From contig NKIB01014547.1 in assembly GCA_002256025.1 (NCBI GenBank), forward strand, positions 1 to 42,684: a stretch of DNA of 42,684 nt. Direction: 5' to 3'. A program made the position numbers and the translations under genes. The notes under the pieces were generated by a model. That model had not been told where the DNA came from and ran no database searches. It saw only the letters and a list, made by a program, of their open reading frames with translations. Origin of the DNA: Asterionella formosa (taxonomy: Eukaryota). This document shows positions 1,853-41,484 of this stretch, piece after piece (positions within the stretch are counted from its first letter, which is position 1; the number at the start of each line of letters is the position of its first letter).

Positions 1853-4821
1853 TCACAAGTCGACATTTGGATGGACCATTAATTTTGCATGTTGCTCCTG
1901 GTCCTTGTTTGTGGGGTGATCACCAATGATCATCAAGGACCGATCTCTATTGACCATGCTTCGAACTACCAAATTCGTAACTTTCTTGATACGATCCATC
2001 TCCGCGACGGAATCACCAATTTCAGATTCACACTGTTCCAAGTACCAACCCACCACCTCAGACCAAGTCAAGTAGGACGATTCTTCCTTGTCGCTTTCAT
2101 CCCGTTCAAGGGATCGAAGGTGAACAGCAATGGCAGTCGACATTGCTTGGTATTCCTCATTGCTAATTTGAACCTTCTTGGATTTCTTTTCCTTCTTCTT
2201 GGGCCGTTCCGTAACATCTGGAGTAGGCACTTCGTCACGAGCCCGTATACGTGTAGCCTTACCAACCAATAGTGGATCACCCCGGGGACCTTCGCTCGTA
2301 TACTCTCCAATGTGCTGTACCACATGCTGCACCTGGTCAGTGTTCTGACCTTCTCCGTCGTCGTCGTCGCTGTCAAAAGTAACATCTTCTGTTTCGACGT
2401 GAATAATGGATTTTCGAAGCAGCCGGAAAGCCTCACGAACGTAGGCTGGTTTGACAAAATCATCCATGTGCAATCGAGCTAAAGCTTCCGACAGGCGTAT
2501 CATGGACTCCAACTGACGTACTGTAATTCTGTAGGCCGACCGAGATTGGCCAAGTGTATCGCCTTGACGAAGTTTCTGGTAACAGTCCACCAGGATTTTT
2601 TGGCTCTCATCTGTCATTTTTGGATTAAGAGATCGCGCCAGGCGGATGTAACGTTGCATCTGCTCCTTTGTGAAGGGGACAGTAACAGCTTCGTCTTCGC
2701 AGCGGTGAACCTTGAGAATATGTTCTGCAACGGCTCGATCAGCGTCTTCATTGCAATCGTCCAAGACAACAAAGAACAAATCAAATCGACTCAAAATCGG
2801 AGCAGACAAGGCGACGTTTGATTTCAAAGTCTTGGTTCGGTCATAGCGACCGTAAATTGGATTGGCAGCAGCTAAAATGGATGCACGAGCATTCAAAGTT
2901 GCTTGGATACCAGCTTTTGTGATACTAATTGTCTGTTGTTCCATTGCTTCGTGAATGGCGACTTGATCGTTAGGATCCATCTTGTCAAATTCATCAATAC
3001 AACAAATTCCATTATCCGCCAGCATAAGGGCCCCGGCTTCAATACAGTACTCTCCGGTATCTTGATCACGCTGAACAGCAGCAGTCAAACCTGCTGCTGA
3101 CGACGCCTTGCCGGAAGTGTAGACAGCTCGAGAAGGAAGGAAGGCATGCACGTATTTGAGAAATTGCGACTTGGCCGTCGACGGGTCGCCAACAATGCAA
3201 ACGTTTATATCACCTCGTAGCCTAATACCTTCTGCTGTCGTCTTGTGAATGCCACCCAAAAGCATCAACAAAATCCCCCGCTTGACCTCTCGATGTCCAA
3301 ACGTGTTGGGGCATATGGATTCGACCATCTGAAGCAAGTAGAGTAGTGTTAACGAGTGAAGCAAGAGTTGAAATAGATCAATTCGCAGAATTCAATGCCA
3401 CGCACCCGATCATATAGCTTGGAAGACTCCTTCATTCCCATTATTTCATTCTTCTGTGCCTCGGTAAATTCCATAGCTACTTCTTGCGCATCGGGCTCAT
3501 GGTCAGTAACTTGCTTGGCGCCAAAAACAAGATTGGCCAGACCTGCCAAACTCCCCGCCCTCGCCATTGCTTCCATAGGAATGACACTCGAAGCTACAAA
3601 GCAAGTGCGATAAGTCAACTCCCGTACTCCTAATGCCTTGAGTCCCCTTACCCCCCCTCCGCCACCAGTGGCTGCATCAGATCCCCGAATCCGGCCACTT
3701 GCACCCTGGGCAGCTTCACCGGCTCTGGCCAATGCCGATCCATCTGGGATAACCACCAATGATCCACTAAATATACACTTGTCTCCGGCTTTGGCTTTCT
3801 CGACCATTTCGTTTCTGACAATCACATCCATCGACCGTGGCATGGAGCCAGGAGGAATCTCGTCACTATTTTCTTGTACGCGGAGCTTTTGCCAATCACA
3901 AAAGTTAGATTCTTTAATTTCCAACATGAATTCATTAGCACTTCTATTTTGGCACCGTGGGTTCCGACAAAGCGTGGGTCGAGTGTAGTGATATTGTTGC
4001 GCGATGCCATTGGCAAGCAATCCGCATTTGTTGCATCGAAAAGTCCCCACCAAGAGTTCTGGCCGAACGTCACTGGTGCGAGTGACCGTGCCCGTTACAG
4101 CCGTGAGTCTTCCAATGCGGTCTGTCTTGAGCATGCGCACTGGCAACGTATGGGGCAAATTGTGCAGGGCGCAGAAGTAGTGTTGGTCCGAAAGGTCGGG
4201 AAATCGGTCTCGCATAAAGACGGCAATGGCAGATCGTAAAAACGATTCAAATCGTGTAAAGTCATTTTGAATGGCTTCTGCAAGTTCCAAGTCATGGTTC
4301 ATTAGATTAGCAAAATCAAGAAACATTGTGGTGGAAAATGGAGCTGTGGCTGATGTGTCGTTCGAGTTGTCTTGGCGTTGGGCCAAGAGCGCGGCTTGGT
4401 CTTCGTATGGGTATATGATGTTGGCCTCGTCTTGGACATGTCCTTCTTCGCTATCACTGTCTGGCGTGCGAGTCGGTTTGTCTGATTTCACCCGCTCCGT
4501 GCTACATATGTTTGGGGCATGCCACAAAGGCAGGAATTCAATTGTTAGGCTAGTTTCAGGAAGGAGAGAACAATTCTGATTGTGGCATTGGTATGATTTC
4601 TTGACTCACTAGTTCATCAGAAAGGAGAGGAAGCGACTCTTGACCAGTTCTCCAGACTCATCAATGAGTTCAAAGTCTCCGTTCATTTGCTCTGCAACTT
4701 GGCCTCTGGCATCCGCCAATCCCATCGCAGCCACTTCGGCAGCTGCTTCCGCTCCTCCATTGTCATCAGGAGTGGCCGGGACTGGAGCCTGATTTTCTGC
4801 TTCTTGTGATGGCGTTGACAT
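1853..4821 (-). CDS. MCM6: DNA replication licensing factor MCM6; 3 exons (4821-4610, 4501-3406, 3328-1853)
   Basis: MCM AAA+ motifs GDPSTAKSQ, IDEFDKM, SRFDL and ITVRQLESMIRLSEA; zinc finger CNKC..CRNPRC; MCM6-type VRELTYR and YTSGKASSAAGLTAAV. Introns 4609-4502 (GTGAGT..TAG) and 3405-3329 (GTGCGT..CAG) join the three ORF pieces in frame. Confidence 0.93.
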
Positions 4822-28805: not shown

Positions 28806-29732
28806 TCACTTGGTATCAAAATCAGCCTTCGAATGACGCTCCTTGATAGCATTGTCACCCCAACCGAGAACACGGACTCCACGCTGCACAGCAGGACGAG
28901 CACCAATGCGCTCCACCCATGCCTTCAAGTTTGTATACGAACTGCCATTCAAATATTCTTGTTCTACCAAGCGCTTGTTCCATGCATAATGCATAATGTC
29001 GGCAATGGTAAGACTATCACCAACAAAATAGTCCTTTCCTTCAAGATGCTTGTCCATGACATCCATAATACGTTTTGATTCGATCGTGTATCGGTCGATT
29101 GCGTACTCCCATTTCATTGGAGCAGCACCGTTGAAATGAGAAAGGCCACCACCGCCATAGTAAGGACCTGCGCCAGTCTGGTAAAATACCCAGCTTATAC
29201 ATTCTGCTTTCTGCACTGGATCCTTGGGTAGAAATGCGTCGTACTTTTCAGCAAGGTACAGGAGGATAGCACCGCTCTCAAAGACACGGGCGCCGTTGGA
29301 TTGATCAAGAATTGCTGGAATCTTGGAGTTGGGGTTGATGGCAACGAAACCAGAAGTAAACTGATCGCCACTGCCAATGTTGATCAGCCAAGCATCATAC
29401 TCAATCTCTTTCAATTCGTTCAACTCTTCGAGCAGAATCGAGGCCTTCACTCCGTTCGGAGTGCCCAAACCATATAATTGAATGTCGTGCGAGCCCTTGG
29501 GAAGCTCCTTTTCGGTCTGAGCTCCACTTGTAGGAACATTGGACCCATGGATGGGTTTCATTGTGGTGGCATCGTATTTCCATACCGTAGGAACTTGATA
29601 GTCGTCGGGGATCGAGGGTTTTGTTGGCGTTGTAGACGACATGGCGAGGGCAGATGGGGTGCGAAGGAAGGAACGTCGGAGAGCAGAAGTGTGCACGAGA
29701 GTGGAACACAAGAACGACGTTTGAATGCGCAT
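28806..29732 (-). CDS. yghU: YghU-type (Nu-class/Ure2-related) glutathione transferase / disulfide-bond oxidoreductase with an N-terminal targeting extension
   Basis: Collinear with bacterial YghU as I recall it: YQVPTVW..PTSGAQTEKELPKG.HDIQLYGLGTPNG, EYDAWLINIGSGDQFTSGFVAINPNSKIPA, VFESGAILLYLAEKY, EYAIDRYT.E.KR, RPAVQRG, ERHSKADF. Confidence 0.88.
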   Translation of the reverse strand: MRIQTSFLCSTLVHTSALRRSFLRTPSALAMSSTTPTKPSIPDDYQVPTVWKYDATTMKPIHGSNVPTSGAQTEKELPKGSHDIQLYGLGTPNGVKASILLEELNELKEIEYDAWLINIGSGDQFTSGFVAINPNSKIPAILDQSNGARVFESGAILLYLAEKYDAFLPKDPVQKAECISWVFYQTGAGPYYGGGGLSHFNGAAPMKWEYAIDRYTIESKRIMDVMDKHLEGKDYFVGDSLTIADIMHYAWNKRLVEQEYLNGSSYTNLKAWVERIGARPAVQRGVRVLGWGDNAIKERHSKADFDTK

Positions 29733-30461
29733 TCAAAAGATTTTTTATGAGCGAAGGCTGTTTCGATGGAAATTTATGTTTCGTTGCCGGTACGAGTACT
29801 TTGTACGGCGATAAATCAGGATATTGAAATGATAATATTCCACCCAAAAATACCGCGTACATACACGAAGATTCTGGAACACACATGTACACATACACTG
29901 GAACTGCCTGCTCAAGAAAAATCTTCGAACTCAATGTTGTTCCAATACCGTGGTACATGAGAAGGATAATAAGAAATATCGCAATGCAAATAAACAAGCA
30001 ACACGCCACATGATGTCGCTCGGGGATTATTATCTCGTAGCTATTTATATAGTGAAAGAAATTACAGAAATGAAGAAGCTTCAACGCGGTTCCAAGATTT
30101 TCGAAGAACCCCCCACCCCCCCACCCCGGAATGTATATTTTTTATTCCTGCAATGTGCAATGCAGAAATTATCATAGCATACCAGTATAAGAATCCATTT
30201 AGCGGTACATACGCTGGGCAAAGTATTTTCCATTTCAATTGGCTTCTTTCATTTGTAGGCTCCCACGCCGCTCGAGAGGAACTTTATGATACGAAAACGG
30301 TCGACTAATTTCGATTTTATCTGCTTCTTCCCATTTTATGTAGGCTACACATTGTGTAGTTACTAAAGCAAGCAAATTATACAAAGTGACAATTGGGCAT
30401 TCATGCTCAAGCAATCTATACTCTAAAGTCTTGAAAACAAAACTTCCAAATGCATACATCA

Positions 30462-31551
30462 TTATAGGCAAGAAAAGTCTGACAGGCAAGCTGCACCCTG
30501 ATAAGTAGTGTTGTAAAGCCCAGCTCGTTGACGCGATAAGTCAAAGATATCCTGTCGGCGAGTTGTGGTCATCGACTGCCTCATCATCGCCCGACGTTCT
30601 TCAATGATTCTTTTCCGTTCCGCCATACATTTCTCGTCACACTGCAACTGGGGAACCCCTATTTCCGCGTTAGCAAGTTGAGGCATGAGCGATGGTGTAG
30701 TCATAACGAAGGTTACAAGGGACAATAGAGTAGTTCGCCTTGATGAATGTATCGACGGCGTTGTTTCTTGCATCCACGCATCAACATGCCCGTTGCTTGA
30801 GTTGTTCTTCTCGTCATGGTCATGGTTCCCCTGAATATCTTCCGCTTTTATTTTCATCGTCCCTCGGTCACTCCAGAATGGCATTTCTTGCACACCCTCA
30901 ACTAACTTAAGATTAATTCCCGAGGGCAATCCCCTCCCTGATAAAGTGTCAATCTCGTCGAACTCCTTCATCCACGAATTTTCAAAGAAGAATATGGTCT
31001 GCGTGTTAAGACCAAATCCCTCGCATTCGCTGACCAACGTCTTGAGCATCGTCAGCTTTCCAGCAACACCCTGTTTCCGACCAACAGCTTTGGCCTCTTG
31101 ATCGCCAATTGCGTTTCGAACGGCCTTCGATTTGTCACCATGCTGCCAGGCCCATTCAAACTGCAGGGCTGTGCGCTGGTCTGTAAAATCATTTATAATC
31201 GCGACAAACTCCCATGGTCTACCGGATCGTTGAGTCCTCTTGGCTCCTCCTGCTTTTAGATCACCATTGTGTTGACGAAGCCGTCGATGTGGATCGGTCT
31301 GATTTGAAAAAAAATCAGATGATAGCTCTCCATAACCAACACCAAGTTGCAATTTCATTACATGAACTTACTGTAAAGCCAACATAGGTCTTGCGAGGGT
31401 GACTAGGATCAAGAGAACGAAGCAGATAACAGTGGAAACTAGTTGATTTACAAATTGTTCGTTTCCCCGTTGCTTGTGTCAAGGCACAAGTCACTTTCTG
31501 AAAACAAAAGAAAAGTAGCATGACTGTGACTATTCGTAGGGATGATTGCAT
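30462..31551 (-). CDS. SLX1-type GIY-YIG endonuclease fused to a putative thylakoid-lumen precursor; exons 31551-31372 and 31298-30462 (start uncertain)
   Basis: FHCYLLRS..TYVGFT|TDPHRRLRQHNG..GGAKRT..GRPWE..ALQFEWAWQH is the SLX1 nuclease signature. Intron 31371-31299 (GTAAGT..CAG) restores the motif in frame. No C-terminal SLX1 zinc finger is visible. Confidence 0.8.
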
Positions 31552-32743
31552 CGTCCTCGTGATCACACAACAACGAAGGCTATGAATCCTTTTGCAACGA
31601 TTGACAGGCAGAATGATGACAGCTGTCGCAACAATTTCAACATCTCGACATGTATTATCGCAAAGAAGGGGTACTGGGATCATATTCTCAGTTCCGCCTC
31701 ATCCTGCTGATCATGATTGTGATTCCCTGGTACCGGTAAAATACGGTTTTTGCTTAATAAAAGGTAAAGCTAAATATCTAGATTATCAGACCTTCCTTGA
31801 CCAGGTACTTGGTACCTGGTCCCAGGTAGTACCAGTACCGGCATACATACGGCTGATCATGATCAATTTTTGCGATCGAAAATAGTCCGTACCGGTACTG
31901 TAAAACTGCCTGGCAACCTGTACTCCGCCAGGGTACTGGTAGAATCATCACGTTAACAGTAAGGACGATACTGGAACCATCATAATTTACCCATTGTTCA
32001 GCTACCATGTGTTGAATCATAAATAGGTACACGTAAAGTGGGGTTTTAAATAAATACACCGGAGTACATCACATGTTGCTTGCATGCCTCCTTATCGACG
32101 TTACAGGCATCACGAATAAATTATCATTTTCAAACAGCTGAACAAAACAGCTCGCTAGCTGTCATTTCGAGAAAGCCACCGGCAAGAGGTAGTTGTCATA
32201 TTCATAACTTGGAAGATATAAGCACAACAACAATAATAATAAAATCTGCAGGTAAACTCATGTCTTGGTCGATGATTGGCTATGGTGGTGATGATGACAG
32301 CAATGTTAGTTCTGCCGTGTGATGTGATCACATACAAGATGAACCACATTTGTGATTAGTAAATAAGCATATAGTATATTCCGAAGAAAAAAGTACATCA
32401 TCGTATTATTCATATAAGTTAACTCATGATTTGAATAGATCAATACCAATTTTGTCTTTTGCCCATAATAGTTCGAAACTGATATGGTGGATGCATGATT
32501 CTCCTGATGAATTCTACATCTATGATGCCGCCCACATTTTTTGGTATCCTATGATGGAATGCTGTTCATCTTGCTCCGAGATGATGACCAACCAGTAACA
32601 TGGATACGGAAGAATAAGGATGGTACAGAATGGTAGTGATGTCTGCCCCTCCTCTCAATATTTCAAGTACAAGATCACGGCCAGAGAACGGCAAGCAGGT
32701 ACTCCTAAACTTTTCCAGCTTATAACGTATCACCTCTCTTCTA

Positions 32744-39363: not shown

Positions 39364-41484
39364 TCACCAACCACATAACTGCTTGCGTATAGCTGTGAAT
39401 TTGTCAGCCACAAGACCTTTTGTAAAGATATCAGCAAGGTTGGCTGCAGCATCCACCTTGACAATTTGAAGAACTCCGGAAAGGACATATTCACGAAACC
39501 AATGATAAGCTACAGCAATGTGCTTAGTACAAGGAGTCATCTTTGGCATAGTAGTAGCTTGGGACAGCCATGCACTATTATCTTTATAGACCTTTGAAAA
39601 AGATCGAACAGCTGAACCTTTACCAATGTGTAGGGCTGTAGATGCTTCTTGAATGATATGACGGAGAGGAATGAGGTCCCGACAACTGGCAGAAAGAGCC
39701 TGATATTCTGCTTCCCTTGTAGATAGTGCAGTGGTAGTTTGTAATTTGGACACCCAGAGGAGGGGACATCCAGCAAGGGTTACGACATAGCCAGTTCGAG
39801 AGCGAGAACAGACTGGATCAGTAGGGTCTTCTGAGCGAAAGAGCCCAACAAAGTCACTGTCACAAAAACATTCAATGTCAAAGGCATCAAGAGTAGGAGT
39901 GAAAATAATTCCTTGATCAAAACTGCCTTTAAGATACCGACAAATTTTCTTTACTGCTATTTCATGAGTAGCACGAGGACAACGAGAAAAGCGAGCACAC
40001 TGATGAACAGCAAAAGCGATGTCAGGACGAGAATTAGAGGCCAAGTAAAGTAGCATCCCCACCACAGACCGGTAGTTCCATGTTTCAGTTGTAGGCGGAC
40101 CATCCTTATCTGTTCCTAGAGTCTCCTTATTGGCTGGAGTAGAGCTAGCCCGACAGTCTTCGAGGCCAGTAGCTTGCAGAACACGCTTAATCAGACCCTC
40201 GTCTTGCGTAAGTTTAAGTGAACCGTTTTCAGTTGATTTGTTAATTTGGATGCCCAGAAAAGCAGCTAGATCTCCCTCTCGAGTCAATTCTAGTTCAATA
40301 GCCAAATTTTCAATCATAGCATCAATCTTGGTTCTATCACGACCAATAAGAATCGAATCATCCACATATACCAGGTAGACCATGATGTCAGCGTGAATAA
40401 AAAGGCATGGGTCTAACAATGGCTGTGTGAAACCCCGTTGCTCAAGACATTCCTTCAATTTTAGGAACCAAGTCCTAGGTGCCTGTTTTGTTCCATACAC
40501 TGATTTATTTAACCGAAGTACCATGTCTCTCCCCCTGGGATCACCAAAATCTTTGGGCATTTCAACATATACCTCTTCATCAATGTCCGCTTGACAGAAG
40601 GCATTACTGAAATCGATTTGCTGAGTCGCAAGGTTTAACACAATGGACATCACCAGTAAAGCACGAACAGTGGACAATTGGAAAAACGGAGCATATGTCT
40701 CAAAGAAGTCCACTCCTTCAACTTTAAGATCTCAGCGTACACAAAACCGAGCCTTGCATTTACGTAAGCTGCCATCTGGAAACAACTTGCGTTTGAAAGC
40801 CCAAATGCCAGGTAAGATATTTTTACCCTGAACTGATTGACGTGTCACTAAAGTCCAGGTTTTCTTTGATGTAAGAGCAACAATCTCGGTGCCCATCGCA
40901 GCTTTAAAAGATTCATGATCAATGCTAGCCATGGCTTCATGGTATCTAGGATTATCTGGGTCATTTCGACGTGCCATTGCAGCATAGACAAGTGGGTTAG
41001 GACACTCCAAGAGACCTGTTGTTGGATCTGTCATAACAGCAGCCAGGTAGGCCAAATCAGAGTCAAAGCCATGGGTGTCACTTTCTTCAACCAATCGGGA
41101 GAAGAAAGCATGGGCAAGGTGGCCTTCAGGGACATAACGAGTACCAAACACACCGAAGTTTGTCCTGGTACTACGGCGAGGTGTAGAAATTGCAGTTGGT
41201 TTCAAGCTAATAGAAGTTGTGTGAACAGGTGGAGTTGGAGGTACCTGTAAATTTGAGGTAGAAATAGTGGGCAGATCATGGCCAGGAATTGCTGGTTCAG
41301 TAGAAAGAGCAGCCATAGGAATATCCTGAACATCAACTGGGTGGATATAGGTAGGAGGGGGAGGGCTCTGAACAACCACAGCAGAGCCAAAGGTAGATGA
41401 ACTAACAGCAGGCTCTTTATGGGCTGAAGAAGCCACCGCAATAGGCAGGGGAACCAGAGGAAACTCCCTCTTATTTGTTGGCAA
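39364..41484 (-). mobile_element. 5'-truncated Ty1/copia retrotransposon pol remnant (RT + RNase H) with a nonsense mutation
   Basis: Copia RT motifs KARFCVR, DFFETYAP, IDFSNAF, KSVYGTKQAPRTW, VYVDD; RNase H motifs CDSDF, ALST.EAEY, KHI, NLADIFTKGL. The two ORFs share a frame and are separated by a TGA at 40734-40732 where the family has Gly. No gag, protease or integrase is visible upstream. Confidence 0.92.

Follow-up and report, generated by a model that had tools for sequence, protein, structure and literature searches.

Does a diatom gene join an SLX1-type nuclease to a thylakoid-lumen precursor in one polypeptide, and what would such a protein do in the cell? The question is raised by a locus at 30462..31551 on the minus strand of a 42,684-nucleotide (nt) stretch of Asterionella formosa DNA (contig NKIB01014547.1; this whole stretch is referred to below as the window). 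A preliminary description, made from the letters of the DNA, had proposed an in-frame fusion of an SLX1-type nuclease domain to a part resembling a lumen precursor, and this fusion was recovered in RNA contigs and recurs in other lineages. Judging from comparisons with other diatom proteins, the SLX1-tail gene is an old SLX1 paralogue in which the zinc finger appears to have been replaced by a twin-arginine signal and a four-Cys domain.

Structure of the SLX1-tail gene

The gene consists of two exons on the minus strand (31551..31372 and 31298..30462), opening with an ATG at 31551 and closing with a TAA stop codon at 30464-30462. Its frame is not a single open reading frame (ORF) but is split by a 73-nt phase 0 intron (GTAAGT..CAG, 31299..31371). 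The continuous ORF of the preliminary description therefore held in part: exon 2 runs into the tail without a stop, and the whole frame needs the intron removed. Exon 1 ends in ...FHCYLLRSLDPSHPRKTYVGFT and exon 2 opens with TDPHRRLRQHNG, giving ...TYVGFT|TDPHRRLRQHNG... when joined.

The product begins with the hydrophobic segment MQSSLRIVTVMLLFFCFQKVTCA (31483..31551), followed by 15 residues with no acidic side chain and many S, T, K and R, and then by the GIY-YIG domain, whose first part (FHCYLLRSL...TYVGFT, 31372..31437) closes exon 1 and whose remainder (TDPHRRLRQHNG ... ALQFEWAWQH ... QEMPFWSDRG) occupies 30861..31298. A weakly conserved acidic linker, TMKIKAEDIQGNHDHDEKNNSSNGHVDAWMQETTPSIHS (30744..30860; 15–34% identity to orthologs), stands in place of the zinc finger of ordinary SLX1 and leads to an internal twin-arginine-type signal, SRRTTLLSLVTFVMTTPSLMPQLANA (30666..30743), made up of SRR (RR codons at 30740-30735), a hydrophobic stretch and ANA. 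The conserved tail domain of 67 residues (30465..30665), with the pattern CxxxC ... ERRAMM.QS ... LSRQRA.LYNTTYQGA.C.....C, carries CDEKC and CLSDFSC and runs up to the stop codon. HVDAW, SSRRTTLLSLVTFVMTTPSLMPQLANA|EIG, the 67-residue end and the N-terminal MQSSLRIVTVMLLFFCFQKVTCA were all found where the preliminary description had placed them. The 3' untranslated region covers 30157..30461, with RNA contigs extending to 30291 (X5), 30218 (X3) and 30157 (X1).

The SLX1-tail gene is a nuclear gene of a diatom. It is surrounded by genes for MCM6, TRAPPC9, PIP5K, FYVE and P450 proteins and a copia-type reverse transcriptase, which mark the window as eukaryotic nuclear DNA.

Transcripts across the fusion junction

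For 30300-31800, 15 sequencing runs were listed, of which 13 hold the stretch or part of it; 12 of these 13 are recorded as RNA (10 studies). RNA contigs of four runs from three studies (X1, X3, X5 and X7) were aligned to the gene. Record 12 of X5, a contig of 1187 nt from a poly-A library, equals 30291-31298 joined to 31372-31550, the intron alone being removed, and record 8 of X3 spans 30218-31298 without a break. The joint 31298/31372, which skips the 73 nt, was present in contigs of three of the four runs (X1, X3 and X5), and no other joint was listed in the contigs of the four runs. Poly-A RNA contigs of separate studies together span the full frame (31551-30462) with the intron alone missing, and the aligned contigs showed neither separate transcripts for the two halves nor a splice that removes the junction. 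Spliced products of 328 residues are encoded on independent contigs (P0004, P0135 and P0137), a 376-residue product that is open at its 5' end (P0133) runs through the leader region, and the same frame recurs in independent DNA and RNA assemblies (P0003 on three contigs; P0001, P0138, P0139 and P0140). Because RNA contigs cross the junction near 30800 with the intron alone removed, in the assemblies examined it is neither misassembled nor spliced away; no break of the gene was seen there. Two contigs of X1 meet at 30842/30844; no splice joint lies there, and the position between them, 30843, is polymorphic (C>T in X3 and X7). Contig depth cannot rank parts of the gene.

The preliminary description had also suspected a splice acceptor at the CTTTTCTTTTGTTTTCAG run. 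This was not borne out, since the RNA contigs are collinear with the DNA there and the DNA of MQSSLRIVTVMLLFFCFQKVTCA is exonic, with no joint at the run.

Intron-retaining RNA contigs occur alongside the spliced form (X1 record 4, X3 record 9 and X7 record 15); with 31299-31371 retained, the frame would end after ...VGFTVSSCNEIATWCWLWRAII. Variants of the RNA or protein records that change a residue relative to the window lie at 30661, 30679, 31038 and 31184 (I>T and Q>R beside the ANA site in P0139, Q>H in P0003 and P0004, T>P in P0135), which indicates several strains in the sampled waters.

The nuclease half and its relation to SLX1

Pfam GIY-YIG (PF01541) matched residues 30-104 of the spliced product P0004 (E 5.7e-12). 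A phmmer search against PDB returned five distinct SLX1 chain sequences (eight entries) at E 7.9e-27 to 3e-13, led by 7wme (E 7.9e-27) and 4xlg (E 1.7e-22) and including 7cq2, 7cq4 and 6seh; these chains align from the start of the domain in exon 1 (FHCYLLRSL) onward. The motifs CYLL, TYVGFT, RRLRQHNG and FEWAW are all present in the alignment to 7wme and 4xlg, and we take the Tyr of CY, the Tyr of Y[IV]G, the Arg of RRLRQHNG and the Glu of FEW to be the active-site residues. Where ortholog sequence is available, RRLRQHNG and FEWAW are found in P0005 and FEWAW in P0145, while P0007 starts after both. By these motifs the nuclease half looks active.

SLX1 is a structure-specific endonuclease subunit composed of a GIY-YIG domain and a C-terminal RING/PHD-type finger, the latter being its SLX4-binding part. 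Diatom SLX1s that bear the zinc finger (P0008, P0010-12 and P0016, 413-483 residues) have a common domain up to MPFW.D[RK]G and then a Cys-rich block, with weak PHD/RING Pfam matches in P0008, P0010 and P0016. The window protein resembles SLX1 (7wme, 4xlg, 7cq2, 6seh) in its SLX1-type nuclease domain, in branching inside the diatom SLX1s and in the block up to MPFW.DRG, and differs from it in having no zinc finger, an added hydrophobic N-terminus and a C-terminal signal of the twin-arginine translocation (Tat) type with a tail. A C-terminal finger (SLX1_C, PF21202, or PHD) gave no match at E<=1 in the window product, P0004 or P0005, for which GIY-YIG was the only Pfam family, and the tail of the fused protein does not align with the C-termini of ordinary SLX1s, which carry a PHD/RING-like finger. 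None of the three outcomes that the preliminary description had named as refuting was therefore observed. With the SLX4-binding finger lost, dependence on SLX4 is unlikely.

Age and conservation of the fusion

A search with the exon-2 product gave 141 matches among 468 candidates (120 proteins listed). Five of the 120 listed proteins cover 79–100% of the query: the gene's own products P0003 and P0004, and three proteins of other lineages, P0005 (58% identity, 100% of the query covered), P0006 (50%) and P0007 (52%), each of which carries both the nuclease and the tail. These three share SRR, the hydrophobic run and the tail, and the cluster members P0145 and P0141 (P0006) and P0151 (P0007) agree. 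Fragment P0043 has the same architecture as far as ESRRTALT; beyond this point its frame is lost, probably because an intron begins. Four other lineages therefore have the fusion, represented by P0005, the P0006 cluster, the P0007 cluster and P0043. In a tree of 55 nuclease domains (quick search, no bootstrap; P0007 and P0043 fill less than half of the columns), the four fused rows and P0043 formed one clade (Shimodaira-Hasegawa-like approximate likelihood ratio test, SH-aLRT, 92), sister (91) to the zinc-finger-bearing P0008-P0012 and nested among diatom SLX1s within a 47-row stramenopile-type clade.

The recurrence of the architecture in other lineages puts the fusion far beyond chance. It also bears on the suspicion that the gene is an artefact of assembly or gene calling, or a very recent chimera of neighbouring genes, which is hardly credible: nothing in its favour was found, the sole RNA-contig breaks near the junction being those of the one run that coincide with polymorphic site 30843, and against it independent DNA and RNA assemblies agree, RNA contigs bridge the junction and lineages 50–58% identical to the window product have the fusion in common, in one clade. 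The recent gene chimera that the preliminary description had entertained can be dropped on the same grounds.

Conservation differed along the protein. Identity of P0004 to P0005, P0145 and P0007 was 68%, 64% and 61% in the nuclease, 34%, 34% and 15% in the linker, 23%, 27% and 25% in the segment from RR to AxA, and 69%, 64% and 63% in the mature tail. The linker frame is open in every ortholog despite its low identity; SRR is invariant in the four aligned fused proteins (alignment A2) and present in P0043, and the RR-to-AxA segment keeps its hydrophobicity and small residues at -3 and -1 (ANA, TYA, VEA). The nuclease and tail domains both appear constrained, and the segment between them seems to drift as signal peptides do. 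Cleavage between A and W at VDA|W, which had been suggested by analogy with diatom plastid sites, is not conserved in the orthologs, the site being a relic at best. An internal Met (WMQETT...) was considered as a separate start and rejected, as this Met is not conserved and the product would have no leader.

A family of small proteins resembling the tail

Searching with the last 104 residues returned nine proteins of 97-173 residues (11 candidates), and all nine of these stand-alone matches have RR and a hydrophobic run shortly ahead of the conserved domain. Several open with a hydrophobic leader whose last residue precedes W, F or L (for example, ...SVLP|WTLQSRR and ...LVWS|WMPC..NRR). From the N-terminus onward the layout is a hydrophobic segment, a short spacer, RR, a hydrophobic run and AxA. 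All 12 rows of the resulting alignment A1 agree in 30 columns, namely those of RR and 28 more; the window tail is 45–53% identical to the stand-alone rows and has all four Cys and the ERRAMM.QS...LSRQRA.LYNTT core. A profile of A1 searched against 1.84 billion representatives gave 165 matches at E<=1e-3, 150 of them at E<=1e-10, and the window product (P0003) was found at E 5.4e-41. Among the profile matches the tail domain always lies at the extreme C-terminus. Named members come from diatom-type data and from haptophytes (a protein of a Prymnesium metagenome-assembled genome and MMETSP transcripts).

In algae with complex plastids, Tat passengers bound for the thylakoid lumen are expected to have a leader followed by RR, a hydrophobic run and AxA. 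By that layout the members are predicted to be small proteins built like thylakoid-lumen precursors; the family is previously undescribed and unnamed. The window tail is one of its members, alongside the stand-alone RR-leader proteins of diatoms and haptophytes (P0051, P0123-P0131, P0257), and P0051 is among its nearest tails in a weakly resolved tree. In the stand-alone proteins their own N-terminal leader adjoins the RR signal, whereas the window protein has about 245 residues (leader, nuclease and linker) before RR. Since the tail tree is poorly resolved (63 columns, with the labels 'alone' and 'PDF', for peptide deformylase, blurred by fragments), independent fusion events are not countable from it.

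Foldseek of the tail against PDB gave no fold match (0 matches at E<=0.001 and three at E<=10). AlphaFold2 modelling of the tail reached a predicted local distance difference test score (pLDDT) of 59 with 12 sequences and 75 with 113 sequences; the model from 113 sequences is a two-helix hairpin followed by a Cys loop. ESM Atlas returned 'hypothetical' clusters and weak feature matches (0.82-0.90) to phycoerythrin-alpha and PsaN clusters, a likeness that we rejected as homology and read as a resemblance of leaders; for the mature tail it gave no usable named match.

A second subfamily of tails (P0217-P0282, for example, P0257, P0247 and P0252) is without the CxxxC pair and keeps the C-terminal C-x5-C, with a core of ...RRQLM.ASRS..NRQSYLDLSRQRA.LYNTT..A.SCPPN.PC. 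By eye, 19 of its 26 printed members have the leader, RR, hydrophobic run and AxA. The exceptions are P0219, P0262, P0275, P0281 and P0236, which have a single R (R-[QKH]-x or TT-R), P0209, which is without RR, and P0216, a deformylase fusion whose RR stands close to the start of the protein. The tail tree showed no fused member of the second subfamily.

The tail as a fusion module and the internal RR

A Pfam scan covered 48 of the 150 listed matches, chosen at about 190 residues or more. A peptide deformylase precedes the tail in 31 of them (in P0192 slightly below the Pfam threshold), and 11 are without any family. The other partners are a UbiE-type methyltransferase (P0184), S1 with RF-1 (P0214), a weak RF-1 match (P0237), the end of a tRNA m5U methyltransferase (P0218), an alpha/beta hydrolase (P0223) and DUF2358 (P0207). 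The P0218 cluster holds a complete 730-residue MMETSP transcript (P0302), and locus L001 is a complete deformylase-tail ORF on one contig of 1560 nt; some singleton fusions from GC-rich organisms could be read-through ORFs.

The position of RR was assessed with a heuristic of our own, which asks for RR and, at most 8 residues on, a 12-residue window free of D, E, K and R with a mean hydropathy of at least 0.9, in the 26 matches whose tail starts beyond residue 150. The deformylase fusions have the same tail at the extreme C-terminus of the enzyme (P0154, P0167, P0056 and L001 are examples) and differ from the window protein in having RR near their N-terminus and a PANA-like relic alone before the tail: the RR site falls at residues 28-86 in 12 of the 14 and beside the tail in none of the 14. 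Seven of the 12 other long or fused forms have it directly before the tail, namely both SLX1 representatives, P0156, P0171, P0184, P0218 and P0237. The window signal SRRTTLLSLVTFVMTTPSLMPQLANA, with its RR, moderately hydrophobic run and small residues at -3 and -1, passes the heuristic. An internal RR is thus kept where no upstream RR exists, as would be expected if the internal signal works. Attached in the manner of a mobile module to deformylase, RF-1 and methyltransferase domains, the tail family would, if the proposed topology holds, raise the question of how functions of the plastid stroma and lumen are linked.

In the deformylases P0154, P0167, P0173, P0208, P0056 and L001:124-1335, which come from diatom- and haptophyte-type data, the enzyme is preceded by a hydrophobic leader, RR, a hydrophobic run and AxA and is followed by the terminal four-Cys tail. 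Since RR precedes the enzyme in these fusions, the whole passenger would be lumenal, and such leaders predict a deformylase inside the thylakoid lumen. Were this so, the location would be surprising, since deformylase acts on nascent chains.

The presence of the same tail on many unrelated enzymes suggests an interchangeable partner, and on this ground the SLX1-tail gene might be a delivery vehicle or a dual-product gene, whose unrelated halves are split by processing or by minor transcripts or splice forms and whose nuclease is of little consequence for the plastid. The PANA-like relic of the deformylase fusions hints at cleavage in the same direction, and the intron-retaining RNA contigs show that isoforms exist. 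We nevertheless regard this as improbable, given that the nuclease keeps its motifs and 61–68% identity across lineages, that the 73-nt intron gives the only joint in the four runs, and that the Met before RR is not conserved and would start a product with no leader.

The N-terminal leader and the start codon

The highest hydropathy window of the N-terminal segment MQSSLRIVTVMLLFFCFQKVTCA reaches 2.96, at IVTVMLLFFCF. Judged by eye, the segment is a candidate signal peptide of the endoplasmic reticulum (ER) type, with a hydrophobic run ending in TCA|L (T at -3, A at -1 and L at +1), ahead of the 15 acid-free residues. The hydrophobic N-terminus is missing in the zinc-finger-bearing diatom SLX1s P0008, P0010-12 and P0016, and the fused SLX1 would thus have gained a stretch like a signal peptide, with the reservation that its start codon is ambiguous.

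The 5' leader (31552..31709), present in some mRNAs at least, contains an in-frame ATG at 31683, with no stop before 31551. Record 6 of X1 matches 31372-31709 with zero differences and so reaches this ATG, and several RNA contigs end near 31550. Besides the in-frame ATG, 31552-31714 holds four out-of-frame ATGs with short ORFs, three of them within the 5' leader (31702, 31651 and 31643) and one just upstream of it (31714). Alternative starts could yield proteins that differ at the N-terminus and are possibly targeted differently. The first six residues of P0133 (VCSSDL) differ from the window frame (CDNTC) just upstream of RDVEIV (window 31648-31683), reflecting either an error at the contig end or an alternative upstream exon.

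Predicted topology of the fused protein

The reading that we prefer, although we hold it to be evenly poised between right and wrong, is that the protein enters the plastid, that its nuclease stays stromal and that the tail is delivered to the lumen by an internal Tat signal, in the manner of bacterial FecR. The N-terminal leader would take the protein into the complex plastid, where the intact GIY-YIG nuclease domain would fold and stay on the stromal face; the internal SRR, hydrophobic stretch and ANA would then engage the thylakoid Tat machinery as a hairpin, and the 67-residue tail would be carried into the lumen, where its cysteines could form disulfides. Without a cut at ANA|E, the protein would cross the thylakoid membrane once, like FecR and other bacterial 'Class V' Tat substrates; with a cut there by the lumenal processing peptidase, the nuclease would stay on the membrane and the tail would be released into the lumen as a peptide. 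Cleavage at ANA|E is hinted at by the persistence of an AxA-type site and by the PANA relic in the deformylase fusions. With either outcome a structure-specific nuclease that no longer relies on the SLX4-binding finger would be placed at the membrane, and from its nuclease family we infer that it may act on branched plastid DNA there.

Two known systems invite comparison. Plant MSH1 is an organellar MutS homologue with a C-terminal GIY-YIG domain and is reported to be associated with thylakoids; it would resemble the window protein in combining a GIY-YIG nuclease domain on organellar DNA with association with a plastid membrane, and differs in its unrelated GIY-YIG lineage, its other architecture and its lack of a Tat signal. 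A Tat signal about 245 residues from the N-terminus and after a folded domain runs against the typical thylakoid pattern, in which the signal opens the stromal intermediate, and fits the internal 'Class V' type alone. In section 6 of Bruser and Sanders (2026, PMC13673990), substrates of that class, such as bacterial FecR, have an internal Tat signal after a folded domain on the cis side. The window protein is like FecR in having an internal twin-arginine signal, a folded cis-side domain before it and a small transported domain after it (PMC13673990). FecR differs in being bacterial and in its uncleaved signal, whereas the window protein would be in the thylakoid of a complex plastid and an AxA-type site follows its hydrophobic run.

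Several points weigh against plastid import with a lumenal tail, of which the ambiguity of the start codon is the main weakness of any targeting claim. There are three in-frame candidates (31683, 31551 and 31521), and a start at 31683 would lengthen the N-terminus by 44 residues, so that the presumed signal peptide would follow a second hydrophobic run (IVATAVIILPV). From the presumed cleavage site to the nuclease fold there are about 15 residues, which is short for a transit peptide, and SLX1 is elsewhere an enzyme of the nucleus. Searches for the ortholog N-termini found none: a scan of metagenome_contigs with A2 gave 206 pattern matches and no relative, a scan with P0141 gave the single locus L001, which is the deformylase-tail and not an SLX1 fusion, and a word search with the exon-1 product gave no candidate. 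Five of the 12 non-deformylase long or fused forms fail the RR heuristic (P0161, P0174, P0207, P0214 and P0223), with P0161 and P0214 showing by eye RR and a hydrophobic run broken by one charge. Moreover, rare isoforms can be hidden by contigs, the tail offers no clue to a function (no Pfam match, and 0 matches at E<=10 in a PDB profile search), and the targeting is read from the amino acid sequence.

Some of these points would suit a fusion that is real and lies outside the plastid, with the RR-hydrophobic stretch as a transmembrane anchor in the ER or nuclear envelope, the nuclease held at the nuclear or cytosolic face and the tail on the lumenal side of the ER. In its favour, SLX1 acts in the nucleus, and the fused clade lies inside the diatom SLX1s; transcripts reaching 31709 include the in-frame ATG at 31683, from which the presumed signal peptide would be buried, and the fold begins soon after the presumed cleavage site. 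In diatoms, the ER and nuclear envelope are continuous with the outermost plastid membrane. We consider such an anchor unlikely, as the stand-alone relatives of the tail carry the leader, RR and AxA of the thylakoid-lumen type and not a plain anchor, RR is invariant, the proteins otherwise joined to the tail, such as peptide deformylase, RF-1 and tRNA m5U methyltransferase, are organellar-type enzymes, and zinc-finger-bearing paralogues in the sister clade could cover the nuclear role.

If plastid import and the lumenal tail are correct, a DNA-repair nuclease of the nucleus would have been redirected into the plastid and fixed to the thylakoid, as a candidate processor of branched plastid DNA in diatoms. 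Internal twin-arginine signals, described so far for bacterial proteins such as FecR (PMC13673990), would then also work in thylakoids. A wider proposal, which we put forward as speculation and consider rather doubtful, is that the four-Cys protein is a portable C-terminal module that an internal Tat signal threads into the lumen from the ends of stromal enzymes in diatoms and haptophytes. Such proteins would be the first natural 'Class V' Tat substrates of an organelle in eukaryotes and might be true polyproteins that the lumenal processing peptidase later divides, and a duplicated SLX1 would have become a thylakoid-tethered, SLX4-independent, structure-specific plastid-DNA nuclease and a candidate junction or flap resolvase of red-lineage plastids. 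Searches of a library of open-access papers brought up no SLX1 fusion, no deformylase directed to the lumen and no Tat-bearing plastid polyprotein in diatoms.

Neighbouring features

Three other features of the window, all on the minus strand, were recorded. A GST-like gene with GST_N and GST_C domains (28806-29732) has an N-terminal extension of about 80 residues (MRIQTSFLCSTLVHTSALRRSFLRTPSALA...), and near it an RNA contig of very high depth abuts at 29900-29956. Two adjacent ORFs at 1853-4326, the first with MCM_OB and the next with the MCM P-loop, lid and MCM6_C, encode an MCM6-type helicase that is presumably split by an intron. An ORF for a copia-type reverse transcriptase (39364-40650; RVT_2, E 1.3e-29) points to a retrotransposon remnant or copy in the window.

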